Program-made: the position numbers and the translations under genes
Notes under the pieces: generated by a model
What the model was told of the DNA's origin: nothing
Databases searched by the model: none
Seen by the model: only the letters and a program-made list of their open reading frames with translations
Part shown: piece after piece, positions 5,319-24,926 of the stretch
Numbering within the stretch: the stretch's first letter is position 1
How the letters are laid out: each line of letters starts with the position of its first letter
Virus record (IMG/VR): IMGVR_UViG_3300032050_000075
Location: 16,960-80,959 of that record
Length of the DNA stretch: 64,000 bases
Strand: one strand, 5' to 3'
Source: a virus

Positions 5319-8300
5319 TTATCTCCAATTTGATGATTTAACCCAGTTAGTTGTTGCTTGTGCAGGATCTAATGATTTACCTGTAACGCCAAATGATCTA
5401 AAGAAATAACTTATTGCTTTACTTCCTTCTTCTCCTTCTTGCATCCATGAGTATGGTCCTTCTCTCTGATCCCAATATGCTTTAGTGTCATCTATTCCGA
5501 ATAGAGCATTACCTGCCACAAGACCTAATGCACCACCCATCTTCTTATAGTTATCTAAAGTATTTTTCATTGCTATGGCATCTAACTTGAGAATCTCTAG
5601 ATAGTTATCTGCACCTAGTCCAGGCAAAGGTAGCCATTGAACCGTTTCATTTTTAAGTTGCATTGTCATAAGAAGTGCATGGTTAGTTAACCATCCTCCT
5701 AATTTAAAATCAGCTTCATTCTCACTTACCCCAAAGAAGGGCAATGGTCCTGATCTATTTCTAAGTTTCTCAAATTTATCTTCATCATCTTCATCAAATC
5801 CGAAGATCATTGAGATAGCCATGCTAAATAGAATAAGATATGCTACATCGGCAGTTGTCTTGTATAATGCAGCCTTCTCTGATGGTGATAAGAAACTAAA
5901 GTATTCTCCTCTGCTTTGTATTCCTCTGAAGAGTGCTCTCATTGCTTCAACATGGAATCCCATTACAGTATCTCCAACAGCAGCATCATATCTGTATTTA
6001 GGATTACGTATACTACCTCTAAACTGATATCTGTTCAAGAACATTCTAATAAACCAGCGCTTAAAGGCTATTATAAATCTGAAGGCCATAAACTTATCGG
6101 CCTCAGCATAATCAAACTTAGCAAAAGAACCGTTCAGGTTATTGTTTACACCCTGTACCTTATTCTTAAATGCTTTAAACTTAACTCCATTAATCCCCCA
6201 TTCAGGGTCTACACCTTCTTTTAATCTTATTTGATTGTCTACTGTTTCCCATGCATCGATATATGCAATTCTTTTAGTAACTCCATTAATTGTTTGGGTT
6301 ACATTTTTCTCGTGATGCATCATTGCACCGAATATAGACAATGATGAATTTAATTCTGTCCATTTACGGAAGCTAGTCATCCAAGTTAGTCCACCAAGTG
6401 CATCTTTAGTTAACGATCTTGAACCATGGTCTGCAAACTTTTCCTCAAATCTACCCTGATATGCATCAAATATTTCAACAAGCTGTTCGTCATGTGACTT
6501 AGGTCCAAACTTATTTACGTTAAGACTTATCTCCCACATTGTTTTATTTGACCATGCTACTCCTTTAGCATAGTTGGTCATGTTGTAGTATTGACCTCCA
6601 GCTGCTTCTTGAATACTCTGGATTCTAGCAGAAAAAGAGTTCTTAAGTGCACTAGGTACGTCCATAGCAAAGTATCCAAAAGCGGATAACTTCATAATGT
6701 TATCTACGGCTTTGTTAATCCAGTGATTGTCCTTATCCTTACCTAGAACACCTTTACGTACTACTCCTTCAAATTCTCTTTCTATAAAGTTATCTATTGC
6801 TGTTTCTCTTATTGATTTCCCTTTACTCTTACCTAGTGTTGTTTTTTCTCCAACAAGACTCCAGGGACTATTGTTTTTCTGTGTTCTTTTATTAATGTTT
6901 TTAAATTCATTAATAGCATCTTCGGAACCTCTCATTACCATCTGTAGTGCCCTAGCCATTGGATTCATCTCAACAAGCTTTCTCTGCTTTTCAGATGCAA
7001 TCATAAATTTTAACATACCATAAGTTAAATCTAATGACACATCATCAGCTTCTAGAGCAGATAGTCCAGTGATTGGAATTCCGGCATTCTCATCATTGTA
7101 TACTTCGCCATCCATCATCATCATCTGATCTTTGAAGTTGTATCCTTCGTCAGCATCATCAGCTGCAGGTTTCCACAGTGATCTAATTCTTCTCCACCAC
7201 CTAGATATTGGATTTTCTAATTTACCTTCAGCAGTAAAGTATTCCATTCTAGACTCATAACCTTCCTTTCTATATCTAGGTATATCAAAACCTAATTTAG
7301 AATTATTGGGACTGTTTTCCTGGAAGGTAAAATGCCATTTAGTTAAGGCAATAATAGCATTATACAAGTTCTTATCCGTGTTGCGGATATTAAAGAACTT
7401 TTCATTTACATATTTCTTATCGTCAATGTCTAATCTAGGTAACCAGTTACCTTTATTATCTATGTTGGCCTTGGTGATATCTCCCTGTTCAATTGCCTCA
7501 AGTACAGATACAGGCTTCGTAACAAACTTCTGCCTTACAGTTCTCTCATAGTAAAGGTGATTAGGCATACCTACAATTGCCTCGTCCTGACCTAATGAGT
7601 TAGTAAAGCTAAATATTTCATAGTACTGTATGTTCTTGGGTCTTACTACACTCCAAGCTTTTACACGTTCTATCTTTCTAGTCTTTACCCCAAATTTATC
7701 GGTAACTGTTTTGATAATATGATTTTTATCAAACCATTCTTTAAATTCAGGATTAGTACTAACTATAGTATTATAGAAGTCCATGTTCAACACTCTATCT
7801 GCAGTATCCATTGTAAGATCTTTCATGTCAAAGTTTGACTCTAAAAGATTCATATCAACAAGGCTCAGATAGTTATTGAACATATCCATGTAATAATCTG
7901 TTGGATATGATTGCTGTAATTCTCCTAGCTCTGAGTATAGCTGGTACAGTTTAGTTTTATCTTCTTTAGACAAACCAAACTGTGATTTCTTATCTAGTAA
8001 TACTTTTACCTCATCTCTTTCTTCTTGAGTAACTGGCTCCCCCTCAGATAATTTTTCATAGTAATTACTAAGGGTAACATGTTCCAATTCTGTTAGACCA
8101 GTAAGCTTGGGTAAATTTTCTTTTGCAAGATTAATTAACTCCTGTGTTTCCTTTATGGCCTCGATGTTACGTAGGTCCATGGCTGTAGCTTCAGGCTGGT
8201 TATCCTCATCTCTATAGGGATTCATCAGCTGCAAAAGCTTTTCATAATGCTTGCTTATATCATAATCAGCCTGTAAGTTTTTGGGAAGTTTACTAGTTAT

Positions 8301-11051
8301 CTTTTTAATTTCATCTGTAATTCTTTTTTGTTCAGCATAAAAGCTATCCTTAATTACAGTTCTAGTATTCTTTTCAATCCACTTATTTCTAAGTTTCATA
8401 AATGGTACACCCCATTTCTCGTAGCCTTGGTCAATAAGTGACTGCTCATATAGAGCAAGAGAATTAGTAAATAGTTCTGGAATTAGAGTATTATCATACA
8501 AGTCCTTAGAACTATTTCTAAACTCTCGTAATCTTTCTGCAATTTTAACTCCTTCCTCATCTTTTAATTGACCTGAAGAAGTATAGTTAGAATGCAGCTG
8601 TCTGTATTCTCTCCAAAGATTTGCTAATTCATCCCTAGTATCAAAGTTCTCATTTGTTGTCGAGATACCAATTGATGTGGTAAGATTTTGAATTCTTGAC
8701 AATAACTCGTTTCTAGCAGCTTCTGCTTTTGCACCGATAATATCCCCAGGACCTTGATTAAAGATATTAAATCTCTTATAGTACTCCTCCGTATATGGCG
8801 TATGAAAATACTTTTGTTCGTAGTCTCTTTTTTCTTTCTTAAGTCTTAGAACCTCATCATTGTTTCCTGATGCATATGCCACCTCAGTTGCTGCTCTAAT
8901 TTCAGATTCCAGTCTAGCAATGTCAGATCTATAGTCTTTCCAAGGATTAATAATAGTATTTACATCTTTAGTAACGTATTTACCATCCTTATCTATGCCA
9001 CCTTTCTTATCTCTAAAGGTTGCTCTTCTTCCAAATGCAGCAGGATTAGATTGGTTATAACCAGCAGCCTCAAGTATAGGTTTAACCTCATTAAGGAATG
9101 TATTACCTTTTCTTTGGGATGAGGTAAATACTTCAGTAAGATTATTCTTTACCCATCCAGCAAATCCAAATACAATTGGATCTTGGTTATATACAAAAGC
9201 TTCCATAAAGGAATTAAGGGCATGACCATCACCAAGTCTACCGGTCATTAAGTAATCAATCTTCTCATCGGTAAGATATGCACCGTCTCTATAGCTTTTC
9301 ATTTTTAGAATCTCATAGTTGTGAGATTCAATAGAAGACATTGGTAGTCCTTTATCTTTCTTATTTTTAAGATCAAGGAATTCAGAAAGTTCTGGTCCTT
9401 CAAGACCCCAATAGTCTTTTTGTTTCTGGGCTATAATACTTGCAGGAGCATTTCTTCTACGGAGATCCTCCATAATCTGGTCATACTTATCATCAATAGC
9501 AGTTTTCATCGGTGCTATCTGAGACTTGAGAACCTGAGATACACCTTCAGTATATACTTTGTTTGCTGTCTTCTGTGCGTTGGATATCTTTCTTCTGATA
9601 CCTCCGACTAAGGATATAATAGGATTATCAGGTTTAATTGCTCCTGCCTGTAGTTCATTGTTAATGGTAGTCTCCATACCATTTAAGAACTCATCCCATG
9701 AATTCATAATGTTGTTAAAGTAAAATACCTTAGCTACATTATCTTGGGAATTCATATCCTTCACAAGATTGATGAGTTCAGTATGCACTCTATCAGTCAT
9801 TACATTCAGACGCAATAAACTATCAAGAAATGCTTTAGTGTGTTGCTTAGCAAATTCAGCATCCTGTTGAAGTCTTGTCATTTCATTTACCAAGTATACA
9901 TTCTTACTTTGGTAAGGTGCTAAGCTTTCGTAAATCTCCCTAAGGTCAGACCTCTGGTACAAATCTTTAAGGATTTGTTCCATTGCCTTATAATCCTTAT
10001 TATTTTTTATAAGCTGGATATGACCAGAGATCATACTAAATAACTCATCAGTTGAGTTTTGCAAAGTATTCTGTGATACTTTTTCCATTGACTCAATCAA
10101 GTTATCATACTCGGTCATGTAAGCAGCTATGTCTTCACGAGTAATAGATTTTGTATCTATATCAAACTCTTCCATCATCAGCATATCTGCAAGCTCCCCA
10201 ATAGTAGTATTAGGATTAAGTTTTTCAACTTTTACTTTTCCGAATACTCTACGTAGAAGTTGCTTGATTGCATACAACAGATTGGAAATGAACTTGTTAA
10301 ATGCAGAATCAGATGTATCTGTTGCTGCCTGAGTTAAAGCCATAACCAATACTTCCTCCATTATGATTGGATCATTTGGTGCAGCAGAAGGATAAGCTTT
10401 CTTTGAACGGTCAAGTAATTCTTGACCCTTCGATGTAGCCATTACCTGTTTATAGAGGCTATTAAATAGTTCAGGATTGGCTGTTGCAATTGCTCTTACT
10501 AAAGGATGAGCAAATTCATGGAAGACAGACTTCTCTGTTGCTAGTTCTGGTAAGATATAAATGGTATCTCCGAAATAAAATGCAGGTTGTCCAGACCAAA
10601 CATTCACATCTTTAGTAATCTCTTGTGCTTCAGCAGCAGTAACAAACTGATAGGGTACGCCTAAATTACTACTTAGTTTTTCTGCAATAGCATTTATAAT
10701 GGCACGACCTTTAAGATTTGACTGAGATTCAGTGTCAATCTGCAGACCTTCTCTTATAACCTTATACCAAGGGAATGCATTCTCTATATCAACAAAATAA
10801 TCCTTAGAACCTACCGGAGCTTCTGTCACGGTTTGCCTATCAGGAGAGTTAATGAAGATATTATAATCATCCATTATTTTATTGAACTCATCACTAGTCG
10901 GCATAGTAGGTTCTTCCCCTGGCTTAAGGCTAGAGTTATGAATCATATATGCTCTCAATGCCTGACTTACAGCAGATCTTTCAGGTATACCTACGGATAT
11001 AGCATGTTCTACTAATGGTTCAAATTCTGATGGTATCGGACAAGAGTTCAT
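5319..11051 (-). CDS. giant internal virion/ejection protein (1910 aa) with N-terminal zincin-like domain and C-terminal hydrophobic helix
   Basis: VFHEFAH (HExxH) plus downstream EE; hydrophobic VAYLILFSMAISMIFG; adjacent to vRNAP as in crAss-like phages; single Cys at position 4. Confidence 0.75.
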   Translation of the reverse strand: MNSCPIPSEFEPLVEHAISVGIPERSAVSQALRAYMIHNSSLKPGEEPTMPTSDEFNKIMDDYNIFINSPDRQTVTEAPVGSKDYFVDIENAFPWYKVIREGLQIDTESQSNLKGRAIINAIAEKLSSNLGVPYQFVTAAEAQEITKDVNVWSGQPAFYFGDTIYILPELATEKSVFHEFAHPLVRAIATANPELFNSLYKQVMATSKGQELLDRSKKAYPSAAPNDPIIMEEVLVMALTQAATDTSDSAFNKFISNLLYAIKQLLRRVFGKVKVEKLNPNTTIGELADMLMMEEFDIDTKSITREDIAAYMTEYDNLIESMEKVSQNTLQNSTDELFSMISGHIQLIKNNKDYKAMEQILKDLYQRSDLREIYESLAPYQSKNVYLVNEMTRLQQDAEFAKQHTKAFLDSLLRLNVMTDRVHTELINLVKDMNSQDNVAKVFYFNNIMNSWDEFLNGMETTINNELQAGAIKPDNPIISLVGGIRRKISNAQKTANKVYTEGVSQVLKSQIAPMKTAIDDKYDQIMEDLRRRNAPASIIAQKQKDYWGLEGPELSEFLDLKNKKDKGLPMSSIESHNYEILKMKSYRDGAYLTDEKIDYLMTGRLGDGHALNSFMEAFVYNQDPIVFGFAGWVKNNLTEVFTSSQRKGNTFLNEVKPILEAAGYNQSNPAAFGRRATFRDKKGGIDKDGKYVTKDVNTIINPWKDYRSDIARLESEIRAATEVAYASGNNDEVLRLKKEKRDYEQKYFHTPYTEEYYKRFNIFNQGPGDIIGAKAEAARNELLSRIQNLTTSIGISTTNENFDTRDELANLWREYRQLHSNYTSSGQLKDEEGVKIAERLREFRNSSKDLYDNTLIPELFTNSLALYEQSLIDQGYEKWGVPFMKLRNKWIEKNTRTVIKDSFYAEQKRITDEIKKITSKLPKNLQADYDISKHYEKLLQLMNPYRDEDNQPEATAMDLRNIEAIKETQELINLAKENLPKLTGLTELEHVTLSNYYEKLSEGEPVTQEERDEVKVLLDKKSQFGLSKEDKTKLYQLYSELGELQQSYPTDYYMDMFNNYLSLVDMNLLESNFDMKDLTMDTADRVLNMDFYNTIVSTNPEFKEWFDKNHIIKTVTDKFGVKTRKIERVKAWSVVRPKNIQYYEIFSFTNSLGQDEAIVGMPNHLYYERTVRQKFVTKPVSVLEAIEQGDITKANIDNKGNWLPRLDIDDKKYVNEKFFNIRNTDKNLYNAIIALTKWHFTFQENSPNNSKLGFDIPRYRKEGYESRMEYFTAEGKLENPISRWWRRIRSLWKPAADDADEGYNFKDQMMMMDGEVYNDENAGIPITGLSALEADDVSLDLTYGMLKFMIASEKQRKLVEMNPMARALQMVMRGSEDAINEFKNINKRTQKNNSPWSLVGEKTTLGKSKGKSIRETAIDNFIEREFEGVVRKGVLGKDKDNHWINKAVDNIMKLSAFGYFAMDVPSALKNSFSARIQSIQEAAGGQYYNMTNYAKGVAWSNKTMWEISLNVNKFGPKSHDEQLVEIFDAYQGRFEEKFADHGSRSLTKDALGGLTWMTSFRKWTELNSSLSIFGAMMHHEKNVTQTINGVTKRIAYIDAWETVDNQIRLKEGVDPEWGINGVKFKAFKNKVQGVNNNLNGSFAKFDYAEADKFMAFRFIIAFKRWFIRMFLNRYQFRGSIRNPKYRYDAAVGDTVMGFHVEAMRALFRGIQSRGEYFSFLSPSEKAALYKTTADVAYLILFSMAISMIFGFDEDDEDKFEKLRNRSGPLPFFGVSENEADFKLGGWLTNHALLMTMQLKNETVQWLPLPGLGADNYLEILKLDAIAMKNTLDNYKKMGGALGLVAGNALFGIDDTKAYWDQREGPYSWMQEGEEGSKAISYFFRSFGVTGKSLDPAQATTNWVKSSNWR

Positions 11052-14000
11052 TACGCTAATTTACAAGATTTTTTAAGGTCAAATATTTCTTCATCTGTTA
11101 CAGGCTGCCTAGACTGTACAATTCTTCTACCCTGAAGTGTCTTTAAGTAATTAGGATTTAGGTATCCGAATTTCTCAAATAACTGCTGCGAAAGATAGTT
11201 AAAAGTTTCTGGAGCTGATGGTTCAAAATCTGGTTTTTCTTTAAGCGGTAAGTACTCATTATATCCAGCCATATATTGACCATAACCGTTAGCATCAAAT
11301 AATAATTCATAACCCTCAGCTTGCTTGCTTTTTAACTCATTGATCATTGCATCAATCATTTCCTTGTTTTGCTCTAGGGTATCGTCAGTAAACATTAGTT
11401 TTTTGTCTTGTTTACCAGCACGAGTAGTAGGCATTGAACCTTTTTTAGTTATAATACCGTAGGCATATTCTCCCATTGCTCTATAAGCTGAGTTGTTGCC
11501 CTGTGCATTTTTAGTTCTTCCGTCTATCTCATTAAATACAACAAGTTGTTTATCAGTGCTTTGTGCAAGAACACTAGCAAACTCCTTCATTATAGCTTCC
11601 GTGAGATTTTTATCTCCAGTTGAAAACTGTGTACTATTAGTTAAGTTATCTTTTACTAGTGTAAATTTATCTAATTCAATACTCATCTTTCCACTAGGAG
11701 CATCAAGATCAATATACTCTTTTGTGTATCGTCGATATGTGGTTATTTCATCAATAGATTTAGCAAAGGCTTTTACTTTTACCTTCAGAGCCTTATTACC
11801 TTCTTCAGAATACTGTGCTTCAAATAAACTATCGTATAAATCTAATGGGCTAGCATCAGGATTAGCTAAGAACTGCTCATATGGTTCCTTAACTAGATTA
11901 AGATAACTTTCGTTTGATACAAATGGAATCAGACTAAATGTGCTTGCAGTATCAATACCGGACTGAAGTAATGCAAAGTGTGTCATTTTCTGAAACAAAT
12001 TGCTTAGTAGGGCATTTTCAAAAGAATCTTTTACCTTTCTTACTGTAGCATCTGAAAGCTCTTGTAGATTGTCATACAGTCTTTCTATATCTTTTCCTTT
12101 TGGTCTTCCCCCAATTCTAAGGTTAGATATTTCTGTATTTCCGTATCTAGTATTAACAATCTCCAAGTCACTAAGGAACTGGTACTTTTCAAACAGTTCT
12201 GGATTAGTATCTTTCAGAGCCATGATTTGCTTAGCATATGCTCTCTTGCCAAAGAACATATGCCCATGGTAATTCAAACCATCTAATGTTCTATCTCTAA
12301 GAACCATCTCATATGCTTTGAAATCTGCATTTGCATCCCCAGTAAATTCTTTTTTATACTCAAAGAATTCTTTGGTCTTAGATATGTTTTCAAAACTATT
12401 AGTAGCTATTGATCTATTGATCTCTCTTTGGTATGTGTACTTATAATATAATCCCTCTGCAACATCTTTATCGTATAGAGATAAAACTGTTGGATCTATA
12501 GGTGCAATTGCATATCCCCAGGCTTGTCCTGATTTATATTTTTCAGAATTAAATATCTCTTTAATTTTTGCCCTATCTACATAAAGTACACCGTCCTTTA
12601 CAAAAGCACCATTATTAAGTGATTTTACTTCTTGAATATCATAAGTAAGATCTACGCCATTATATGTTTTTGCATTTGGGTCAAACTTATAGTAGTTCTG
12701 CTGAAAGATAAACGAAATAAGATCTGATCTATATTTATTGATTACATCCTCATCATCTGCCATACCTATTCTTTTCTTGAGTGTTGACAGCTTTTGTCTA
12801 AAATTCTTATCCCGTGCCAATAAAGCAGAAGATATATGATTATTTAATTTGTCACCATCTCTTAGCGGGAATATATCTTTGAAAACATCAACAATAAAAT
12901 CTTGAATTTTAAACGCACCCTTAGGAGAGTTATTGATTATCATGTCAATAGACTCCTGTGATATGCCATTTGCCAGGTCATTTAATTCACTGAGTTTTGT
13001 TCTTGCTTCAAACAGTGTAGAGGTTTTACTAGTATCAAAGTTTAACTTCTGTGTAAGATTAGTAACCCCATTTGCCATCTCTTCTATTTCTAGATAATGT
13101 GCAAACACTGCTCTATCTACATCTGTATACTCTTTACTTTTAATATTATCCTCAAGTGCTTTTTCTGAGAAAAGATTTTTGTCCGCACTTTTAGCAATTC
13201 CTTCAATTGTTGGCCATAGCATCCATTTCTTTACCGTACCATCTTTTTCGTAATCTTTTTTAACTAGACCAAACCCAAACTCCTCATCAAATAAAATCTG
13301 ATCTCTTGCCGTAATTCTATAGTATGTGCCTGGATCTTTGATACCAAGCGGTTCATTGAATTTACTACGAAGCATTTTCTGTTTTCTAATGTATTCTCTA
13401 ATTATGGGCTGTGACATAAACAGTGCAACCTGTTTAGCAGGTACACCAGCCTGAATCATAAATACAATTTTAGAAATAGCCTCTTTATCAGCCTGCAAAT
13501 CAAAGATCCAATCATCCTTAGCAACGTCTACAGAACCATTAATCATTTGACTAATTAAGTCTGAAATTTTATCAATACCATCAGCAGAGTATAAACTAGA
13601 CAATGAGATATTACCATCTATAGTATTGTGTGGTAATTCTAGGGTTTGTCTACCATATACATTTCCTGATTCAGTACTTGTTACAACTCTTTCAGGAAGT
13701 AAGACAAGACCTGTTCTATTAAATATTGTACTGAAGGTATTATTAACTGCAATAATTCCTAGAATCATCTTACCAATATTGTTGGATTGATGCTTCTCCA
13801 GGTTAACCTCTGATTCAAAAATATCTGTTGCAGATCTCTTTTGTTTTTTACCTTTTAGTTTTTCAGCAATCTGTTCTGCAATATCCTTTAGAGTGATTGT
13901 TGTATTAGGAGTTACAAGAGAAAGGAAGTTATCTTCTTTCTCCAAAATTTCTTTTGTAATAAATAAGATATCATTTTCAACCCCATTGATTGTATCTCCT

Positions 14001-17000
14001 GTTTCAATCTGTGCTACACCATCCTCGTCAACTTTAATATTTGGGAATAGCGTAAACATCTTATCAATGTCAAAGTCACCACCAGTCTTACCTACAATTT
14101 CTGCGGGGAGTATAATGATATTACCAGATGATTCGGGTAAGAATTCGGCAATCTCCATAAACTCCATTGAGTTTAATCCCTGAGTCGGAATCCTTACTGC
14201 AACAGATGTAATAAGGTTTCTATTATTATTTACCCATTCCTCATCCTTAAGGCGCATATTTAATGCATCTAATGGGGATATATCTTGTTCTCTAGCCAAG
14301 GTTCTTACATCCTCTAGTCTAAGGAGTTCTTTAAACTTACCCTGCATTGCAATTTTTATTTGCATTGCCTGTGTTTTTCCATCCTTTAGGTCATAGAATC
14401 TCAATCCTCTTTGGCCATATTTTTTTGCTTCTTCTTTAGACGGCTTACGGAAATTAGCTTTTTCAAATCCAGTACCTGCAACTTGTACAAGACTTTCACC
14501 ATTTACTTTTTGGTTTATTAAGTTCTTTTGTACAACAGCAACAAGACCTCTCTCAATGCTATCTGCCATTAGAGAAAGATCTAAGCTATTCTTGAATTTA
14601 TTCTTTTGCTCATCAAAATCTACAAATTCAATACTATGTTCGGCCATTTCTCTTCTAGTAAGTTCCCTTCTAATGAACTTAACTAGATCTATTGGATTGG
14701 TTCCAATTTCTTTTTGTAGCTTTTGTTTTTTAAGTTCTACTAACTTTTTTAGTCTAGACTCATATAAGTCAAGTAATCTGTAGTTATTTGAACCTCGCTT
14801 ATTAGTCTCTTCTTTCCACTGCTTAATTCTTTCAAACTTATCCTTAAGTTCTGGTTTCCAGTCAGTTGGAACACCATTCTCCATAAGACCTTCCTCAATC
14901 AATGTTCTCAGCTGAGTTGGGAATGTTACATATCCTTTGTATGCATCATTTACTTCAAGTTGATCTTTAAAGTAATCAAGGAATATATTGTTTTTAGTAA
15001 AGGTGTAGGCAGGATTAGCAAATGCTACAGACTGATCTTTCTCATTAGTATTATCATTATAGAACTTATCTACAGCACCATTATCAGTAATTGTATTGAT
15101 CTTAGACCCGGATTGGAACATTGCGTAGTCTACACCTTGTTCCAACATTCTTTGCTGTAGTATCTCCATATGAGTATCTACAGTAATGTTAGGAATCAAA
15201 GGCATCAAAGAATACTTATGGAATCCATAAACAGGAAGACCATCTGTTGCAAGTGGTCCCCAGTATTGCATCTTTTTAACAGGGAAAAACTGAAGTAATT
15301 CTCTTACATCTACCTGTTCATTATTTATCACCTTAGAATAAAGCTGTTCCTGATAATGTGACCATTTATTAAGTGATAACAGTAAAGATCTATATGCATC
15401 GAAGTTGATCCATCCTTGGCCATCACCTTCTTTCATAGAAGCATAGGCATCATTAAAAATATCCTCAGTCTTTTTTAATGCCTGATTTATTGTATCCTCA
15501 GATAAGTTCAGGTCTCTTAGTCTTGCCTCTTCTTTTTCTTTGGCATACTTAAGATAATCATCTAGATATAATGATCTGGTTGCTGTATCCTGCATTACTG
15601 CAGCAGACATAATTTTGCCAAATGACTTAGGTGTAATACCTAATTTACCGGCTAAAGAATCCTCCCTAAGTTTTTGATTGATGTACTCAATCATATATTT
15701 ATCTGTACGAGGAATGTCTCCTGTAGCAGAGAAACCAGCATTTCTTTTAAAGAATTCGTCTTTACTATGATCATATAATGCAGGGTCACCATAGAACAAA
15801 AGAGTAGACTCATATTTATGTAGCCAGTCATTTGCTGTATAAGCAATAGCTATTGAATCTACAATCTCCTTCTTTCTGTCTCTAGATAGGGTTGTAAGGG
15901 TTTCTGATTTCTCATATCCCTTTTTCTTAGTACGAAGCATTCTCTTAACAAGCTCATCTACAAGCTGATCATTCTGAAAGAAGTTTACTTCATTTAATTT
16001 TTCAGTAATTATATTGCTTCTGCTAAATATATACTCCGTAATTTCTTTTTCAACTGTATTTTTAAGGTCTCGGTTAATTGGGTCATTCAGGTATCTGTAA
16101 AAATTTTCGGCAGTTCTAATACTATTTTCTTTAGCACCTCTAAATGCTTTTAATTTATTCTTAGTAGTATCAGATAAAATTTTATCAAAGATTGCAAACT
16201 GAGTACCTGTCTTGTAATAATTAGATTTACCTACGGTAACTGTTCCTGCAGAATCTCCATCTTCTAGTTTTTGAATACGTTCATATTCACTTGCCAAATA
16301 TTGTACAAGTTGGTTTACGTATTTCTGTACACCTGTAGACATATTTTCTCCAACCGCATCAGAAAAAGAAGCAATATCAATTAAATGAACATTACCTTCT
16401 TCATCTACAACTTTATATAAGTATGTAGTAGACTTATCTGCGTGACGTGTTGCTTCATTGACGCCATATAGCATCATCATAAGCATGTCTTCTAGCCTCT
16501 TAGTAACAGCATCTGCACTAGATGATGCTACTCCAGAATTCTCAACAATACTTTTTACGTTTACTAACTCCCGGCTTACTCCTGACATATTCATCAGTTC
16601 TATTCTAGCCGTAGTCATCTTATTGTTTACAATACCAGTTTTCTTTTTCCCGTTCTTATCAAACAGTCTTCTGAAGAAAGCTGATGTCTTTACAAACGGA
16701 TTACGTCTGCGGGACAAATGATTCATACTTAAATCATCTGCATTGGTCACACCATCCTGAGTAAGTTCAGTTTCAGTATTAGCAGCATTTAACTTAGAGA
16801 TTGTCTGAGAAGCTGAACTTCTTAATGATCTTTCGTACTGGTTCTGGTTCTCCGCATTAGATACAGTAGTGTCAGAAAAGTCGTCAGACCATTTCAATTG
16901 AAACTTCTGAAGATTATTAAAAGTAGCTGTACTTCCTCCAAGTTTTATCTGCGTACTTATTGCTCTTCTTTTTTCAGAATCAGAAGCACCTGGATCCAGA

Positions 17001-20000
17001 CTTATTTTTACTTTAAAGTCTTTTAGAATTTCAGATGGTTTAGTAATTACCAAACGTTTAGTGGGGGAATATTGATTATGATATTCCTGAATTCCCTTTA
17101 GCGTTGTATGAATATTACGAACATCAACAAGCATGTTAGATTCTCTAAATGCTTTCTCGGCAACCTTAGTTGATTCTAACGGCATACCTACGGCCTCCAT
17201 AAACCTGTCAGCATTATCAAATGTAACAACTGGAAAATCTGCTAGTACCTTATCTATATTAAGAGTGTTGACGTTATTCTCATCTACGGTAATATATGGA
17301 CCTGTTGCAATAGCAAATTGGCTATCCCATTTTTTACCAACCTTAGTATATTCTCCAGTAGCCTGAGTAGCCGTTAGGATAACCGTCTTTTTAATCTTAT
17401 CAGAACCTTCGGGTTTACTATTTTCTACCTTTACTCTAAGGCTTACAAGACCAATGCGAGGCATGGTCATAATCTTTTCTATGTCTGACCAAAGTCTAAC
17501 AGAGGAGTTCTCCAGATTAGCAGGACTACCTACCTTATCAATAAACTGTTTTATAATAGGGTAATCAGCAGATGCATCTTGAAGCTTCTTATAGATATCA
17601 TCTACGTTGTTAGACCCTTCAGTAATATTAGTAATCCTATTCCAGCTTCTATTAAAGTCAGCAAGTTTCGGGAAACCAAGCATGTTCTTTTCTACATTAC
17701 CATTAGAGTCATGTGAATGCAGTGTCTTTATAGTATAGAGTAGAGAAGTACCTGCTAATGCCTTCATAGCAGTTTCGTTACCAGCCTTACGGTCAAATTC
17801 ATTACGTTCGTATACATTGACATCCTCAGGCATATCACCAAGTCTATCCTCAAATTCCAAGAATTCTGAAGTCTGACCGTGGTATTTTACAAGACCGAAT
17901 GTGTTGAAGGGGTTGTTACTATCACCAAAGTTGCGTAATGCATATGCAAGCAAACTAATCTTATAGTCAATCTCCTGTCTATCAGCATTAGCATCCATAG
18001 CATTATGCTCTAGTAGGAGTTCTTCTAGCTTATTAGTAAGCTGTTCCTCTACATACTTATATGCAAGGGTTCTTCCTTCCTTATCTAGTAGCAGTGCTCT
18101 AGTAAATGTCTTAGTATTCTCTGCCTGGTTTAGTTTATCAATCAGTTCCCCGATTAATGCATCTGTGCTATCTACTAATAGTTTTGCATCCTGCCTAGAG
18201 ATAGTTCCAGGACCATCCATCAAAGGATCTAATGGTTGTATAGTACTATTAAGTAAAGAGAATTCAGCATTAGCCTGATTAAAGGTGTACTGATTTATAT
18301 CTCCTACTCTTAATTTCTCAAACATCTCACTAATAACAGGGTTACCCATGCTATTATCCTGTACATCCTGTACACTAGTCTTACCAAACAGATAGTTTAG
18401 TATATCTAATAAGAGTTGGAATATCTTGTTTCTTACCGGAGTCTTTTGATTTACCTTCTTACCTTTAGATAGCATAAATTCTCTAAAGTCTTCGGCCAGT
18501 TTCTCTTCTAGTTCTTCTCTGGTAGCATTAGCATATGATACTTCTCTTCCTCTGAAACTCTTAAAGGTTCCTTTATTCTTTCTAGCCTCAGCATATAATG
18601 AATCTCTTTGTTCTTTAGTCAAGAATGTCTGAGTAAAGCCGTGCCATGCTTCATGGTATAGATCTGAGTAGTTAGACCCTTTGTATAGGGTAATGCCGTG
18701 CACATCCCAGGTAGCAATAGATCCTCTAGTCTTAGTATTGACTACATTAAATGCTACAGTAAATGGGATAAACTTAGCAAGAGGACTGTTTTCATACCAT
18801 TCTTTGGCCAGTTTTATCTGCTCTGCAGTAGCCTTGACATTGGTTTGGTCATCAAGTTTGTTACGCAATCTCTTAAGCAAATCATTATTCTTAAGGATCT
18901 TACTTATAGTATCTGCATCACTTGATGATTTACCTTCTTGTTCTTTTACAATTGGTTCAGCCTTTGCAATAACCTCTTCAGTTTTTTTAGGTTGTTTAAA
19001 GTCTGTCTCCTGAATATTTCCTACATACTTATCTCCGATGTATACTTCTACAACATCAAAGAATTCTCTCCCATCCTCAGTAACAACTCTATCTACAAGC
19101 TTTAATGTAGCTTTCTTACTAAGGTCTGATTCATTTATAGGCTCTGCATTTCTATTATAGAAATTAACTACAGTACCATCAGCCTTTATAAATTCAAAAC
19201 GAGTAACACTGTTCTGTGGTCTCTGGATATCTCCTATTACTTCCTCACCTCTAAGTAACTGATCAACTATTGTATCTTTCTTTTCTCTAACTGTAGAATA
19301 AGTTGTAGGTTCTTCTGCTTTAAGTATAGTTTTTCCAATACTCTCCGGTGTAGAAACCAAACTAAAGTATGGATTGTACTGCTTTATAGTTCCATCAGGA
19401 GCAAGTTCTGTTTTTACTTCTGTGACATGGCTCATGTATTCAATAGGAGACATGGCCTTTACTCCAGAAATATATGCGCCACCAGTTCTTTCATCGATTT
19501 CTACGGTATAAAAAGGAACTGCTTCTTCGCTATTAAACTTGTTTGTCAGGAAAGTATATTCACGAAGATTGCCGGTCTTATCTTTTGTAATAGCATTCCT
19601 TACGGCCTGCTCATTATCCAAATCAATAATTTCATTTTTATACTTAAGTACTAATCTATTCTTTTCTGAGTCAGTAGATATGCTTATATCATTAGCAGAC
19701 ATCTTAATATATGTCTGAATGATATTCTTTCTAGTCTCAAGAGATACAGGTTGACCTGCCTGATTAGTAATACTTTTAGTAAGTACATTATAAATAAGAT
19801 TAGTATCTGAATCAGATAGCTTCTTATTCTTCATATACATTAATCCTTTTCCAGAAACAGAAAGATAGAATCCGCCCTTAGAATTTGAAGAACCGGTTGC
19901 CTCAACAATCTGATTCTTATTAAGCAGCATTACCTTCTTAGCAGCACCCTCAAAGTCAATAGTTTTAGGATCTACAAAAGCGGCCTTTTCGTTTACTATT

Positions 20001-21058
20001 GCCCCATAGCTTCCACCTGAAATTGAAAATAAAATCTTCTCTTCAGGATTAGATTTAAGATAGGAGTATGATTGCTCTAATGCTGTAAACTGCGCATTCA
20101 AAAGCTTCTCAGCTTCTAATTCAGTTATGTTAAGATTTTTAGATAGTTCAGTAGGATTCTGAACGTTCTTAACATTTGTTAAAATAAATTTTCCGTCTCT
20201 TTTTGCAGGTAGGAATCTGGTATTATAATAAATCATTTTACCAGATAACGAAACATTGTAGTCCTGATCAAAAATTACCGGATTACCTTCACTATCAGTT
20301 ATCGTATAAACAAAACCGTTATCATACAACTCTTTATCTTCAGGTCTATTAAGATCCATCTTAGAGTGTAGCTGTGCTGCAGGTATTTGATTATACCGCA
20401 TCATTGTAACAAATAGGCCACCGTATACTCCTGGATAATAGATACCAGACAATTCTGTGGCCCCTACACGCTTACCAATATGATTTCTAAGGATCTCATG
20501 AACAAATTTTGTGTAGTACTGCATTCCTGGGTCAGCCCCAAGACTTGGATCATCTGGATCTACTAATTCATTTATAGTAGTAGATATTGCTGTTTGTGGA
20601 CGTAATCTTGCTAACTGAAATGTATTTTCTGATATTTTTTGCTCAACTTTTTTTTGTTGTATTTCTTTTTCTTCTTCCTTAAGAATATCTTCTACTACAT
20701 CTTTAGAAACAATAGGTGCAACATATTCACTTACAAGATTTAATCCATTGACTGGATCTGCAAACTCAATGTTTTTCTTCATTAACTCATTGAGATCCAA
20801 ACCTTTAAACAGAAGCTTGGCAATATCATTCGGTCTATTTGTAGTCAATTGTGATATAATCACAGATCCCATCCTTGCATAGTCTAATGCAAGATTCTTA
20901 TTACCGTTTGATCCGGCTTCAATAAGATTATAAAGATCTTTCAAGTATGACTTAACGTCAAACTGTGATTCTGAACTTGTAAGTATATCTAACAAGTCAC
21001 CTGAAATCTTTACTCTAAGGGTTCTGATTTGATCAGGCGTGAGACTACAATTTATCAT
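11051..21058 (-). CDS. virion-packaged DNA-dependent RNA polymerase polyprotein (crAss-like, two-barrel), with zincin-like domain
   Basis: RIPTQG...GKTGGDFDIDKMF catalytic motif (DFDID as in crAss-like phage RNAPs), DGQGW and FFKR motifs, YHEAWH HExxH; 3335 aa. Confidence 0.9.
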   Translation of the reverse strand: MINCSLTPDQIRTLRVKISGDLLDILTSSESQFDVKSYLKDLYNLIEAGSNGNKNLALDYARMGSVIISQLTTNRPNDIAKLLFKGLDLNELMKKNIEFADPVNGLNLVSEYVAPIVSKDVVEDILKEEEKEIQQKKVEQKISENTFQLARLRPQTAISTTINELVDPDDPSLGADPGMQYYTKFVHEILRNHIGKRVGATELSGIYYPGVYGGLFVTMMRYNQIPAAQLHSKMDLNRPEDKELYDNGFVYTITDSEGNPVIFDQDYNVSLSGKMIYYNTRFLPAKRDGKFILTNVKNVQNPTELSKNLNITELEAEKLLNAQFTALEQSYSYLKSNPEEKILFSISGGSYGAIVNEKAAFVDPKTIDFEGAAKKVMLLNKNQIVEATGSSNSKGGFYLSVSGKGLMYMKNKKLSDSDTNLIYNVLTKSITNQAGQPVSLETRKNIIQTYIKMSANDISISTDSEKNRLVLKYKNEIIDLDNEQAVRNAITKDKTGNLREYTFLTNKFNSEEAVPFYTVEIDERTGGAYISGVKAMSPIEYMSHVTEVKTELAPDGTIKQYNPYFSLVSTPESIGKTILKAEEPTTYSTVREKKDTIVDQLLRGEEVIGDIQRPQNSVTRFEFIKADGTVVNFYNRNAEPINESDLSKKATLKLVDRVVTEDGREFFDVVEVYIGDKYVGNIQETDFKQPKKTEEVIAKAEPIVKEQEGKSSSDADTISKILKNNDLLKRLRNKLDDQTNVKATAEQIKLAKEWYENSPLAKFIPFTVAFNVVNTKTRGSIATWDVHGITLYKGSNYSDLYHEAWHGFTQTFLTKEQRDSLYAEARKNKGTFKSFRGREVSYANATREELEEKLAEDFREFMLSKGKKVNQKTPVRNKIFQLLLDILNYLFGKTSVQDVQDNSMGNPVISEMFEKLRVGDINQYTFNQANAEFSLLNSTIQPLDPLMDGPGTISRQDAKLLVDSTDALIGELIDKLNQAENTKTFTRALLLDKEGRTLAYKYVEEQLTNKLEELLLEHNAMDANADRQEIDYKISLLAYALRNFGDSNNPFNTFGLVKYHGQTSEFLEFEDRLGDMPEDVNVYERNEFDRKAGNETAMKALAGTSLLYTIKTLHSHDSNGNVEKNMLGFPKLADFNRSWNRITNITEGSNNVDDIYKKLQDASADYPIIKQFIDKVGSPANLENSSVRLWSDIEKIMTMPRIGLVSLRVKVENSKPEGSDKIKKTVILTATQATGEYTKVGKKWDSQFAIATGPYITVDENNVNTLNIDKVLADFPVVTFDNADRFMEAVGMPLESTKVAEKAFRESNMLVDVRNIHTTLKGIQEYHNQYSPTKRLVITKPSEILKDFKVKISLDPGASDSEKRRAISTQIKLGGSTATFNNLQKFQLKWSDDFSDTTVSNAENQNQYERSLRSSASQTISKLNAANTETELTQDGVTNADDLSMNHLSRRRNPFVKTSAFFRRLFDKNGKKKTGIVNNKMTTARIELMNMSGVSRELVNVKSIVENSGVASSSADAVTKRLEDMLMMMLYGVNEATRHADKSTTYLYKVVDEEGNVHLIDIASFSDAVGENMSTGVQKYVNQLVQYLASEYERIQKLEDGDSAGTVTVGKSNYYKTGTQFAIFDKILSDTTKNKLKAFRGAKENSIRTAENFYRYLNDPINRDLKNTVEKEITEYIFSRSNIITEKLNEVNFFQNDQLVDELVKRMLRTKKKGYEKSETLTTLSRDRKKEIVDSIAIAYTANDWLHKYESTLLFYGDPALYDHSKDEFFKRNAGFSATGDIPRTDKYMIEYINQKLREDSLAGKLGITPKSFGKIMSAAVMQDTATRSLYLDDYLKYAKEKEEARLRDLNLSEDTINQALKKTEDIFNDAYASMKEGDGQGWINFDAYRSLLLSLNKWSHYQEQLYSKVINNEQVDVRELLQFFPVKKMQYWGPLATDGLPVYGFHKYSLMPLIPNITVDTHMEILQQRMLEQGVDYAMFQSGSKINTITDNGAVDKFYNDNTNEKDQSVAFANPAYTFTKNNIFLDYFKDQLEVNDAYKGYVTFPTQLRTLIEEGLMENGVPTDWKPELKDKFERIKQWKEETNKRGSNNYRLLDLYESRLKKLVELKKQKLQKEIGTNPIDLVKFIRRELTRREMAEHSIEFVDFDEQKNKFKNSLDLSLMADSIERGLVAVVQKNLINQKVNGESLVQVAGTGFEKANFRKPSKEEAKKYGQRGLRFYDLKDGKTQAMQIKIAMQGKFKELLRLEDVRTLAREQDISPLDALNMRLKDEEWVNNNRNLITSVAVRIPTQGLNSMEFMEIAEFLPESSGNIIILPAEIVGKTGGDFDIDKMFTLFPNIKVDEDGVAQIETGDTINGVENDILFITKEILEKEDNFLSLVTPNTTITLKDIAEQIAEKLKGKKQKRSATDIFESEVNLEKHQSNNIGKMILGIIAVNNTFSTIFNRTGLVLLPERVVTSTESGNVYGRQTLELPHNTIDGNISLSSLYSADGIDKISDLISQMINGSVDVAKDDWIFDLQADKEAISKIVFMIQAGVPAKQVALFMSQPIIREYIRKQKMLRSKFNEPLGIKDPGTYYRITARDQILFDEEFGFGLVKKDYEKDGTVKKWMLWPTIEGIAKSADKNLFSEKALEDNIKSKEYTDVDRAVFAHYLEIEEMANGVTNLTQKLNFDTSKTSTLFEARTKLSELNDLANGISQESIDMIINNSPKGAFKIQDFIVDVFKDIFPLRDGDKLNNHISSALLARDKNFRQKLSTLKKRIGMADDEDVINKYRSDLISFIFQQNYYKFDPNAKTYNGVDLTYDIQEVKSLNNGAFVKDGVLYVDRAKIKEIFNSEKYKSGQAWGYAIAPIDPTVLSLYDKDVAEGLYYKYTYQREINRSIATNSFENISKTKEFFEYKKEFTGDANADFKAYEMVLRDRTLDGLNYHGHMFFGKRAYAKQIMALKDTNPELFEKYQFLSDLEIVNTRYGNTEISNLRIGGRPKGKDIERLYDNLQELSDATVRKVKDSFENALLSNLFQKMTHFALLQSGIDTASTFSLIPFVSNESYLNLVKEPYEQFLANPDASPLDLYDSLFEAQYSEEGNKALKVKVKAFAKSIDEITTYRRYTKEYIDLDAPSGKMSIELDKFTLVKDNLTNSTQFSTGDKNLTEAIMKEFASVLAQSTDKQLVVFNEIDGRTKNAQGNNSAYRAMGEYAYGIITKKGSMPTTRAGKQDKKLMFTDDTLEQNKEMIDAMINELKSKQAEGYELLFDANGYGQYMAGYNEYLPLKEKPDFEPSAPETFNYLSQQLFEKFGYLNPNYLKTLQGRRIVQSRQPVTDEEIFDLKKSCKLA

Positions 21059-21059
21059 T

Positions 21060-24000
21060 TTATTTACAGCCTAATGAGTTTAAAAGGTCGTTATCTCTTT
21101 GTTCTTTTGTCATGGACTTGGCTTTCTCCACGTCCTCATTAATAGTATTTATAAGGTCTTCCTCCGTAGTAACAGTATTCAAATTCTCATTTGACAACTG
21201 TTGTTCTTCAGTAGTAACCTCAGGAGTAACCTCTATAGAGGGAATCCCCGTCTTATATATACTAGCAATTTCGTTAGGTATTTCACTTTCTATAAAAGTT
21301 ACTCTATCTTCAGTACCGACAGGTTGAACCGTAATGGTTCTATTAGCTGCATCAGTCTCAATAACTCTTGCGCGTTTTAATGGGAACTTGCCAGAATCTT
21401 TCATTACAAGTACAGTGTTTTCTGTTAACTCTTCAAATTTAACTAATTCTGTAGGAACCGCAGTTGCTTTTTCTGATACTTCTGGTCTAGGTGTACTCTT
21501 ATCTATAAGATTATTCGCAACATTCCAATTATAGATAATGTTAGCCGCATTAGCAGTTGTTTGAACCCATTTTGCAAACTCAGAATCCATCATGGCTTTC
21601 TGACCAGCATTGATCAGATTGTTATTATCAATTCTAAATTGTGCACGTAACTGAGCAATTAGATCTTTAGGAATATCTCCTACGGCCATATCTGTAGTAA
21701 CTGGTTTAGTTACAGTAGGAACTTCTGGTTTAAGACTTACCTCTTCTTCAACCTCAGCAGGCTGTTCTTCTACTACTTCTACAGTCTCTGGCATACCTTC
21801 AAACTTATACCCCATAGCCTCTTCAAAGTCTTTGAGATATTTTATTATGTCGGCATACTTAGGACTATCTTTTTCAACAGCGGTCTTAGTTGCAACATCA
21901 ATAAAGACAGAAGGCAATGCTTTACCTTTTACAAGATTCTCAATTTCATCAGGTAAGATGAATACTTGAAACTTATCGTATAGTTCTGCAATTACTTCAT
22001 TAGAATCCTTCCTACGAATAAACTCAGAATAGGCATCCTCTAAATACTTTTTACTTACCTCTACAACCTGTCTTTGCGAATCACTAAATCTTCTGGCTGT
22101 TTTAAAGAAAAAGTTTGGGTCATTTAATTTATTTACGTTAGCTGCTGCTACTCGTTTATCATGATCTAATTCATAGTAGTCCTGAAGATCGATAACTAAC
22201 TTGTTCATAGAAGCATCGTTCTTAGGTAGGTCAGTCACAATAGATATATATGCTCTTAAATCTTTTTCAAGTTCATTTCTAGAATATTCCAAATAATCTG
22301 GAACAGCATCCTCATCAACTGGAGCCTCTTTATCTACTAAACTTTTTCTGTATTTTTCAAGGTCCATACTGTACAAATCAATACTAGCACCTAATGCAGC
22401 CAATGCCTCATAGCTTTTCTGCTTTTGTTTTGCTAGTTTCTTTTGTTCACTATCTCCTTGTGATAACACTACTGCTTCACTTTTTAAAAGATCTAATTCT
22501 TCTTTTAGCTGAGTAGTATTAAAGATATTAGTAAGCTTTCCTGCAATTGCTCCACCTGCAAATCCCCTAGCTTCCTGAAGAATGCTACCCATTCTTTTTT
22601 CAGCTTGGTCAAAAGTATATTCATTATAGATGGCAGCTTTTCTTGCAAGCTCAAATCCCATATAATCAACAATCTCATCTGAGTCTGGATCAAACGGATT
22701 CTTTATAGTGCTGTATTTTTGATGACGCTTAGAGATTTCTTCAATCTTATTTTCAACACCAGTAAGCTTTTCTCTAATTGATTTATTATATTCATCAGCA
22801 TTTCCATTTTCTTGGCTATAGCCAAATGCCTGGAGTAATTCATCATCAGTTAATTGCTTGAAACTTCTAATCTGATCTTTTAATAAGTCTATATAACCTT
22901 TATTCAAAAGGAGTTCAACATGTTCAAAGATTGAATCTTGTGACGCATCCTTATGTTCTTTTTTATTGCCATCAGATTCAGCACGATCCATTGTTGTTGC
23001 AAAGTCCTTCTGTGCTTGTAGATTAGCATATACAGAATCAAATAAAGTCTTAGGGTCTGCAGCAACATCATTTAAGAAGTTAGTTATCTTTTCTTGCTGT
23101 TCTTTTCTTGTTTTTTGTCTTTCAGCATATTTTGTAGGATCCTTTCTTCTTTCCTGAAAATCTTTAACTACTTGCGGAGCATACTGAAATGCCAATGCTT
23201 GTGGCCCTTGAACAAGACCTCCCATCAAGAAACCAGATAAGAATGTCTCAGCACCCCTACCTGATATTTGATTTCCAAATCCCTCACCTAATGCAGCAGT
23301 ATATGATAAATATCCTGCTCTTTCAGGATTAAGATACTTTTGAGTAAAGTAATTTGTTGTTGCTTCACTTACAGCCTCTTGATATACTTCTTGTAAACCT
23401 TCTGTAAGGTTGGCCGATAAATAGCGCATGCCACCTTTAACTAAGTTTTTAGGCTTAAATTGGTTAGCAATTCTTTTAGCATTTCTTGTAGTAAACCACG
23501 TCTTAGGGTCAGCTGGATCAATGAATCCTTCATATTTCTTACCCTTACCACCTAATCTCTTTACCATTGTTCCAAGACTACCTTCTCCAACTTCTCTAAA
23601 TGGTTTAAACCCATTTAATGCTTTATCAAAAACTATCTTGTTAGAATATACAATGGCCGGCATATTCATCAGTGTAGTTCTAATACCTGCATCTTTTGCT
23701 GTTTTAAGCATCTTATTAGCAGCAATGTCATCCGGAGGCACTACATTATTTTTATTCCAGTCTTCAATAAGTTTATTAAAGACCTCATTCTGTACAAAAC
23801 CACCTTCTAATCTTGATTCAGCTAGTGCAGTATTCATCAGTCGCATATCTCTGAAGAAAGAACCAAATGTTTTAGTTGCCTTAGCTACATCAGTTAGCTT
23901 ATCAAAACCGTTTGCACCAGTGCGTACATTCTTAATAGTTTCAGCAGTATCTGAAAAAGGATTTATAAATCCAGCTACCCCATTCCAAAACTTTCTAGCC

Positions 24001-24926
24001 TGAGAAACATCTTGTACTGAATTAACAGCACTTGTCATTGAGGCAGCTTCTGCAACTGTCTTACTTGCTTTAACTGCGTCGGCCGCATTCTCAGCAGCGC
24101 TCCCCATAGAGAATAATTTTTTTATATTAGCTCCAGTTCTTGCTATAGCTGGTGCTGCTAATGCACCTTCAGTTAATGCTGCTGCACCCCATAATGCTAC
24201 TTCTTCGGCAAGCATTTCCCCCATTACACCGAAGGTATATGCAGAATTTGCAAATTGGTTAGTCATAAAACCACCAATACCACCTCTTGATGTTGATGCA
24301 ATAGACATAAGCCTATTCATCTCCCTAGCATTTTTGGTATCTCCTGCTGTATTTAGAGTAAACAAATCATCCCAGTTTTGGGCAGTTTGTTTAAATCCTA
24401 AACCGGCAAGTTTACCCCACTGATTCCATGCCCTACTAAAATCATCTGTCCAAGAACTATTAGCATTATAGATAGATTCATTATCTACATATGGATTCCA
24501 TCCCAATTGTTTGAATGAGGGATGTGCATAATATCTATCAAAATTTAATTTATTAGGTCCAGCAGTAAATCCAATCTTTCTTGGCCCTATAACAGCTGTA
24601 TTTTCAGGGATTGCTCCCGGAGCAGATATACCACCAATTAGTCCTTTTACATAATCAACATTACCTCCTTGCTTTGGTCTAACAACATTAGGCTTAAATG
24701 AAGCCATACCGTTGTATGTACCTAATTGTTCGTTTGCTTTCTGTATATTTCCACCAGTATAGACACCACCATTACCTGGTTTTTGTAATAACAACTGATC
24801 AATACCCTGTTCTAATCTAGGTACTGCTTGATCTAAATACTGTTTAGTTTGAGCAAGAGTATTTAAATATTGATCAATAGGATCGACACCCTGTATGCCA
24901 GGAGGTATTTGAAAGTTATCTACCAT
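21060..24926 (-). CDS. large internal virion/ejection protein (1288 aa)
   Basis: Ala/Gly-rich hydrophobic stretches, EGLQEVYQ and FLSGFLMGG motifs like phage DNA-transfer proteins; single Cys at residue 1287. Confidence 0.7.
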   Translation of the reverse strand: MVDNFQIPPGIQGVDPIDQYLNTLAQTKQYLDQAVPRLEQGIDQLLLQKPGNGGVYTGGNIQKANEQLGTYNGMASFKPNVVRPKQGGNVDYVKGLIGGISAPGAIPENTAVIGPRKIGFTAGPNKLNFDRYYAHPSFKQLGWNPYVDNESIYNANSSWTDDFSRAWNQWGKLAGLGFKQTAQNWDDLFTLNTAGDTKNAREMNRLMSIASTSRGGIGGFMTNQFANSAYTFGVMGEMLAEEVALWGAAALTEGALAAPAIARTGANIKKLFSMGSAAENAADAVKASKTVAEAASMTSAVNSVQDVSQARKFWNGVAGFINPFSDTAETIKNVRTGANGFDKLTDVAKATKTFGSFFRDMRLMNTALAESRLEGGFVQNEVFNKLIEDWNKNNVVPPDDIAANKMLKTAKDAGIRTTLMNMPAIVYSNKIVFDKALNGFKPFREVGEGSLGTMVKRLGGKGKKYEGFIDPADPKTWFTTRNAKRIANQFKPKNLVKGGMRYLSANLTEGLQEVYQEAVSEATTNYFTQKYLNPERAGYLSYTAALGEGFGNQISGRGAETFLSGFLMGGLVQGPQALAFQYAPQVVKDFQERRKDPTKYAERQKTRKEQQEKITNFLNDVAADPKTLFDSVYANLQAQKDFATTMDRAESDGNKKEHKDASQDSIFEHVELLLNKGYIDLLKDQIRSFKQLTDDELLQAFGYSQENGNADEYNKSIREKLTGVENKIEEISKRHQKYSTIKNPFDPDSDEIVDYMGFELARKAAIYNEYTFDQAEKRMGSILQEARGFAGGAIAGKLTNIFNTTQLKEELDLLKSEAVVLSQGDSEQKKLAKQKQKSYEALAALGASIDLYSMDLEKYRKSLVDKEAPVDEDAVPDYLEYSRNELEKDLRAYISIVTDLPKNDASMNKLVIDLQDYYELDHDKRVAAANVNKLNDPNFFFKTARRFSDSQRQVVEVSKKYLEDAYSEFIRRKDSNEVIAELYDKFQVFILPDEIENLVKGKALPSVFIDVATKTAVEKDSPKYADIIKYLKDFEEAMGYKFEGMPETVEVVEEQPAEVEEEVSLKPEVPTVTKPVTTDMAVGDIPKDLIAQLRAQFRIDNNNLINAGQKAMMDSEFAKWVQTTANAANIIYNWNVANNLIDKSTPRPEVSEKATAVPTELVKFEELTENTVLVMKDSGKFPLKRARVIETDAANRTITVQPVGTEDRVTFIESEIPNEIASIYKTGIPSIEVTPEVTTEEQQLSNENLNTVTTEEDLINTINEDVEKAKSMTKEQRDNDLLNSLGCK

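Follow-up and report, generated by a model that had tools for sequence, protein, structure and literature searches.

The DNA analyzed here (64,000 nucleotides, positions 16,960 to 80,959 of the IMG/VR virus record IMGVR_UViG_3300032050_000075; hereafter the window) carries three consecutive giant genes whose products contain only four cysteines (Cys) in 6,533 amino acids (aa). We named these proteins A (1288 aa), R (the 3335-aa virion RNA polymerase, RNAP) and B (1910 aa). All four Cys are located within four residues of the ends by which the proteins face each other in gene order. This pattern is conserved in homologues and is found at the breaks between the corresponding proteins in named Crassvirales genomes, and the same signature coincides with a disulfide solved in an unrelated cyanophage. 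The best reading of these sequences, which we consider probable, is that two inter-chain disulfides join the proteins as A-S-S-R-S-S-B and replace the peptide bonds present in fused forms. Crassvirales are the most abundant human gut phages. The packing and delivery of the five crass cargo proteins, including the virion RNAP, are called an open question in the available part of PMC10172136.

Cysteine content and layout of the cargo genes

The four Cys are C1287 of A (...LGCK), C4 and C3332 of R (MINC... and ...KSCKLA) and C4 of B (MNSC...). An earlier note made from the letters of the window (hereafter the sequence-only reading) had placed four Cys at exactly these residues and codons. The computed count and the codon translations agree with it, and no additional internal Cys was found in the three giants. 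It had also described the four internal proteins encoded upstream as Cys-free, which was borne out (zero Cys in 3,201 aa), and the junctions between the three genes do read TAAAATG and TAATG as it had claimed. In the window's 20 other open reading frames (ORFs) that are 150 aa or longer, Cys make up 2.37% of the residues (236 of 9,974). With the same composition, the seven cargo proteins (9,734 residues) would contain 230 Cys, versus 4 found (Poisson P ~1e-92). With 1, 2 and 1 Cys per protein, random placement would put every one of them no more than 4 residues from a facing end with a probability of ~2e-11. A chance origin of the Cys depletion and of the Cys placement is excluded. The cargo genes, the muzzle gene that precedes them and the features discussed below are as follows, (-) denoting the minus strand.

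21060..24926 (-): gene A, 1288 aa, virion cargo, first in the proposed chain (ORF listing and Cys count, C1287 being the only Cys; 68 homologues)
11051..21058 (-): gene R, 3335-aa virion RNAP of the two-barrel crAss type (tblastn to phi14:2 gp66 and other Crassvirales; DFDID motif)
5319..11051 (-): gene B, 1910-aa RNAP-associated protein, homologue of phi14:2 gp65 (B-family profile; HEFAH zincin motif)
21066..21068 (-): codon of A Cys1287, the penultimate residue (translates to C; C-terminal Cys in 64/68 homologues)
21047..21049 (-): codon of R Cys4 (translates to C; N-terminal Cys in 113/120 listed homologues)
11063..11065 (-): codon of R Cys3332, the fourth-last residue (translates to C; invariant alignment column; 116/120 listed homologues)
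11040..11042 (-): codon of B Cys4 (translates to C; invariant alignment column; 100/103 homologues)
18182..19000 (-): domain X of R, residues 687-959, zincin-like (profile hidden Markov model, HMM)
18641-18655 (-): HEAWH motif in domain X, R residues 802-806 (motif search)
14063..14077 (-): DFDID catalytic motif, R residues 2328-2332 (motif search)
10506-10520 (-): HEFAH zincin motif, B residues 178-182 (H178, E179 and H182 conserved in the B-family alignment)
24926..34683 (-): four Cys-free ORFs upstream, 1098, 938, 638 and 527 aa (ORF listing and Cys count)
34683..39755 (-): crassvirus muzzle protein, 1690 aa with 14 Cys, preceding the cargo block (Pfam PF25731, E 3.9e-28)

The source of the window DNA is a crAss-like phage. 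Pfam matches to Crass_capsid, CrAss_Ring_1, CrAss_Ring_2 and crAss_MUZ mark a crassvirus structural module on the minus strand, and the cargo genes come after the muzzle gene, in the order 527-, 638-, 938- and 1098-aa ORFs, then A, R and B. The four upstream ORFs are presumed to encode cargo proteins from their position after the muzzle gene; they are outside the proposed chain because their products have no terminal Cys. By tblastn, R matches phi14:2 gp66 (E 3e-8; E 2e-12 by blastp) and 90 other phage records, nearly all of them crAss-like. The B-family HMM matches phi14:2 gp65 (E 9e-26) and a 1349-aa protein of Kehishuvirus (E 9e-35). BLAST and HMM searches gave no match between the window A family and the A proteins of named families (gp67/gp47), and an HMM built on the N-termini of named-family protein A found no match among the window proteins. 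Position in the block and domain X are the only ties of the window A to gp67/gp47. A, B and the four upstream proteins matched no PHROGs family, and Pfam gave nothing above threshold for any of the seven cargo proteins, R included. For R, a megablast of its region against named phages gave no match, and phmmer against solved structures gave nothing at E 0.01. A weak match of the B profile to structure 8gl3_A (E 3e-5) was judged unrelated. DNA nearly identical to the window was found in 20 public runs from 14 studies, labeled freshwater, lake water or "fungus metagenome".

Terminal cysteines in homologues and at protein breaks

Each giant was searched against a large protein collection, and Cys within the first or last 12 residues were counted as terminal. 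Conservation of the terminal Cys in orthologues, on which the sequence-only reading had staked its proposal, was found for all three proteins. Among homologues of B (22-92% identity), 100/103 have an N-terminal Cys, mostly at position 3 or 4, and 0/103 a C-terminal one; 89/103 contain no other Cys. For R, 120 proteins are listed of the 262 that passed, and all R counts refer to these: an N-terminal Cys is present in 113/120, a C-terminal Cys in 116/120, and internal Cys are absent from 95/120. The A homologues have a C-terminal Cys in 64/68 cases and an N-terminal Cys in 0/68, with zero internal Cys in 112,563 aa. Internal Cys rates were thus 0.009% for B, 0.008% for R and 0% for A. The terminal-Cys pattern was kept down to 22-30% identity.

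Most of the exceptions are incomplete proteins. Relative to the N-terminal profile, P0112 starts at model position 42 and P0199 at position 29; P0113, P0133 and P0218 start inside domain X; domain X comes ~560 residues too early in P0202; P0111 starts without a Met; and P0164, P0185, P0238, P0264 and P0267 are short proteins. The IGRAHV endings of P0134 and P0279 may be sequencing-adapter read-through. As a control, the best 150 of 1,229 relatives (E 0.001) of the neighbouring 1098-aa cargo protein were inspected in the same manner. An N-terminal Cys was present in 0/150 and a C-terminal Cys in 1/150, so terminal Cys are not a general habit of cargo proteins. An internal Cys pair (residues 128 and 134) is present in most of the relatives examined from this 1098-aa family (24926-28222; P0292-P0441), and the window copy lacks it.

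The position of the Cys relative to gene breaks was analyzed in 15 named Crassvirales genomes, a junction being called strict when both Cys were at most 12 residues from the ends. Three architectures were found. A, R and B are separate, as in the window, in phi14:2, Kehishuvirus, IAS virus and cr85_1; A and R are fused and followed by B in eight Suoliviridae and cr108_1; and A is followed by a fused R-B protein in two Intestiviridae, with the B-like part at the C-terminus of gp66. Of the real junctions with both sides visible, 16/18 carry a strict Cys pair and 2/18 a loose one, while Cys are present at 0/29 outer ends (Fisher p 1.9e-16, calculated on lineages that are not independent). The IAS virus gp055|gp056 "break" falls within ambiguous bases and was excluded from the junction count. 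The sole Cys of the phi14:2 trio are C1797 of gp67 (its last residue), C3 and C2179 of gp66, and C3 of gp65. Gene A is on the opposite strand to R and B in Kehishuvirus "tikkala", IAS virus and cr85_1, yet the C-terminal Cys of A and the N-terminal Cys of R are both retained, which argues that neither translational coupling nor a DNA motif is the cause. The Cys codons alternate between TGT and TGC, that is, by synonymous changes. An oxic versus anoxic habitat was tried as a determinant of the pattern and dropped, since the pattern persists in gut phages and disulfides are present in crAss001 virions.

A group I intron (RF00028, 80 bits, E 8e-21) inside the DFDxD motif accounts for an apparent break without Cys in cr108_1. 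It lies in the virion RNAP gene of this phage (MT774385.1; 24460-24778 of our record L006), the exons on either side being annotated as individual proteins in the database record. When read with table 11, the annotated giant ORFs of the Suoliviridae records L012-L016 and L019 are interrupted by 5-74 in-frame stops, which is consistent with stop-codon reassignment in these phages.

The break between A and R does not fall at the same place in all lineages. The domain X profile matches the C-terminal end of Kehishuvirus A (residues 2135-2270 of 2310, E 3.5e-12) as well as internal positions in five fused A-R proteins. From the placement of domain X, the A|R break comes after this domain in Kehishuvirus and ~690 residues before it in the window clade. 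Both lineages have a Cys pair at their own A|R break and none at the break of the other. Terminal-segment HMMs were too divergent for placing junctions in fused proteins, and domain X together with an alignment to phi14:2 gp66 was used for that purpose. Five of nine fused A-R proteins were placeable, and none of them has a pair of Cys at one or the other estimated break. One fused R-B protein, cr11_1 gp66, likewise has no Cys pair at its estimated break. The expectation of the sequence-only reading, that the Cys vanish where the genes are fused, thus held for the pair in five placed A-R proteins and one R-B protein; some fused proteins keep a lone Cys near an estimated break.

A segment of R (residues 570-702; 18999-19351) matches residues 1918-2054 of the A-family protein P0270 (43% identity, E 7e-25), which hints that domains may have moved between A and R.

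A predicted disulfide chain and the alternatives

A disulfide with this signature has been solved in another phage. In cyanopodophage A4, a Cys1715-Cys5 bond between gp27 and gp26 was seen by cryo-electron microscopy in the packed pre-ejectosome; the available part of that paper treats it as a structural detail that stabilises the packed pre-ejectosome, and not as an ejection device or a rule (PMC12002296). In the genome of this phage, also known as Anabaena phage A-4L, gp27 (1717 aa, sole Cys 1715) adjoins gp26 (1114 aa, sole Cys 5). The likeness to the window is close: the genes are adjacent, the upstream protein has its Cys near the C-terminus and the downstream protein near the N-terminus, and both are otherwise Cys-free. 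Comparison of A4 gp27 and gp26 with the window A, R and B gave a best BLAST E of 0.018 over 67 residues and no HMM matches. The likeness is one of mechanism and not of family. In this unrelated system, then, the sequence signature goes with a bond that has been seen. A4 differs from the window in that it has one link, versus the two proposed for A-R-B, and no RNAP in its chain.

In the proposed mechanism, the facing ends would dock first, non-covalently, and their thiols would oxidise after particle assembly or release, as those of other crass virion disulfides must. One bond would link A Cys1287 with R Cys4 and the other R Cys3332 with B Cys4, to give one covalent chain in the capsid. The disulfides would substitute for the peptide bonds of the fused-gene lineages, and the modules would be held 1:1:1 and head-to-tail. 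Other Cys would be selected against, such that the two designated bonds are not scrambled and no wrong bonds form during passage through the envelope. We infer that the bonds exist in the window phage, that the chain would exit as one thread and that reduction in the cytoplasm would free the polymerase. Pairing in gene order (the C-terminus of A with the N-terminus of R, and the C-terminus of R with the N-terminus of B) had been put forward in the sequence-only reading. What stands of it is that the facing Cys are conserved, independently of gene order and strand, that the outer ends are Cys-free, that no pair occurs at the placed fused breaks and that A4 provides a precedent; the bonds themselves are a prediction.

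Several points weigh against the two-disulfide chain. The habitat of gut crassviruses is reducing. The junction and outer-end counts are not independent events, since the lineages are related. The B homologues P0047, P0080 and P0087 have no N-terminal Cys and the R homologue P0128 no C-terminal Cys, and these four stand as exceptions to the pattern. Both loose junctions depart from the strict pattern: cr273_1 has its R Cys 50 residues short of the end, where a low-complexity tail follows, and the Cys of cr110_1 is residue 17 when counted from the annotated start (residue 3 if the start of the near-identical relative cr11_1 is used). Domain X is the sole marker of the break shift, homology between the window A and named-family A being undetected. 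It was also undetected in four of the nine fused A-R proteins (cr60_1, cr130_1, cr273_1 and cr52_1), whose breaks are not placeable. Three of the five placed fused A-R proteins carry a lone Cys at most 150 residues from the roughly estimated Kehishuvirus-type break; by alignment to phi14:2 gp66, these Cys sit 145-285 residues inside R. The fused R-B protein cr11_1 gp66 has a lone C2319 ~90 residues before the estimated end of R.

The facing Cys could instead bond or dock for assembly only, R and B being co-packaged with A in fixed stoichiometry, with no role in threading or redox release. Nothing in the present data bears on ejection order, which is in favour of this reading. Against it, the cytoplasm is reducing, so a disulfide would be no help before packaging, and the fused forms show a covalent continuity that is compatible with delivery. 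We hold a role restricted to assembly to be unlikely, even though the description of the A4 disulfide as stabilising the packed pre-ejectosome, in the available part of PMC12002296, speaks for it.

A metal-bridged clasp in place of a disulfide, such as Zn or Cu coordinated by two thiolates and further ligands, is improbable. The trio contains two zincin-type HExxH motifs, so metal is present in these proteins, and Cys that face each other in pairs would suit a metal bridge no less than a disulfide. One Cys per end supplies two ligands only, however, and no conserved His, Asp or Cys neighbours occur in the terminal sequences listed; the precedent in A4 is a disulfide (available part of PMC12002296). 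The sequence-only reading had mentioned a metal clasp as an alternative. As a single four-Cys site, it does not fit the lineages with one junction, which have two terminal Cys, and is ruled out as a general explanation.

It is more improbable still that the terminal Cys bind separate partners, for example Cys-rich proteins of the capsid, portal or tail, or act as a cysteine switch on a zincin site. Structural proteins of the window are very Cys-rich (up to 8%), and zincin motifs lie 150-800 residues from some of the terminal Cys. This explanation accounts neither for the restriction of Cys to facing ends (0/29 outer ends) nor for the missing pair in the placeable fused proteins, which keep domain X, and the terminal Cys outnumber the zincin sites. 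It is scarcely credible that the Cys arose by chance or as a side effect of the gene junction, be it a coupling signal or a DNA motif: TGTAAAT does occur near the next start codon at both window junctions, but gene A keeps its Cys in the four genomes that have it on the opposite strand, the codons vary between TGT and TGC, and the placement has the chance probability of ~2e-11 given above.

Starting from the chain A-S-S-R-S-S-B, a wider proposal is possible, and we advance it tentatively. Covalent continuity of A-R-B may be invariant in Crassvirales, provided either by a peptide bond or by a terminal disulfide. The disulfide would then be a compartment sensor: a thread of ~6,500 residues would be delivered whole and cut at two points by thioredoxin-type reduction in the host cytoplasm, freeing the RNAP from its envelope-spanning neighbours, and the purge of other Cys would protect the two bonds. 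If the two-bond chain is real, it would explain both the extreme Cys depletion and the ease with which fused and split genes replace each other. Testing it would be cheap, with phi14:2 and crAss001 in culture and four residues concerned. Finally, a structural observation in one cyanophage would become a rule across non-homologous podophage ejection systems.

Tail-region genes and comparison with known systems

The tail-region ORFs of the window, also on the minus strand, are very Cys-rich, and some reach 4-8% Cys. The Cys counts are as follows.

42732-43481 (-): tail-region ORF, 20 Cys in 249 aa (8%)
46315-47883 (-): tail-region ORF, 21 Cys in 522 aa
47921-48859 (-): tail-region ORF, 21 Cys in 312 aa
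48872-52348 (-): tail-region ORF, 42 Cys in 1158 aa
52361-55822 (-): tail-region ORF, 39 Cys in 1153 aa
56050-56610 (-): tail-region ORF, 12 Cys in 186 aa

Both of the ~1155-aa ORFs have weak Sortilin/BNR matches, and one also has a VWA domain. This Cys content suggests that the tail of the window phage may be heavily disulfide-stabilised. Unlike the tail proteins, the major capsid protein (540 aa, 62336-63958, minus strand) has zero Cys. Two further genes on the minus strand were noted in this part of the window, a GIY-YIG/NUMOD1 homing endonuclease gene (40665-41357) between the genes of ring protein 1 and ring protein 2, and a gene for a ferritin-like protein (PF00210, E 5.6e-21; 58116-58721) inside the structural module.

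Among the closest known systems are the cassettes of Cellulophaga phage phi14:2 (gp67-gp66-gp65) and crAss001 (gp47-gp50-gp49), with homologous R and B, the same block after the muzzle and cargo genes and an identical terminal-Cys pattern. Kehishuvirus, the genus of crAss001, differs from the window clade in the position of the A|R break relative to domain X. The cassette proteins of phi14:2 and crAss001 were detected in virions by mass spectrometry, according to the available parts of 10.1101/2020.03.07.982082 and PMC10172136. The latter also reports many structural disulfides in crAss001 virions and places gp47, gp49 and gp50 in the cargo zone of the capsid. In its available text, the word "cysteine" has 0 occurrences, and the disulfide passages concern gp57 and the tail, not the cargo (PMC10172136). 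In the available text of the phi14:2 preprint, "cysteine", "disulfide" and "Cys" each have 0 occurrences (10.1101/2020.03.07.982082). Our literature searches found no paper describing the terminal-Cys pattern for Crassvirales.

Schitoviridae (N4, DEV) resemble the window phage in ejecting a giant virion RNAP under strong Cys suppression. The sequence-only reading had stated that the N4 virion RNAP lacks Cys and that this is attributed to its passage through the periplasm; both are stated for N4-type virion RNAPs in the available part of PMC11445570. According to the same source, the modules of the Schitoviridae protein are in one polypeptide with no Cys (0.00075% in gp71 homologues). By contrast, the window phage has separate proteins with four conserved Cys at facing ends, and its polymerase is of the DFDxD two-barrel family.

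Di-chain bacterial toxins have one interchain disulfide, which is reduced in the target cytosol. As a functional analogy only, they share with the proposed chain one designated disulfide joining translocated chains, with release by cytosolic reduction possible. What is already known among phages is one bond in one cyanophage; what would be new, as far as the sequences can tell, is a conserved two-bond chain around the virion RNAP, following the splits between genes across a phage order.

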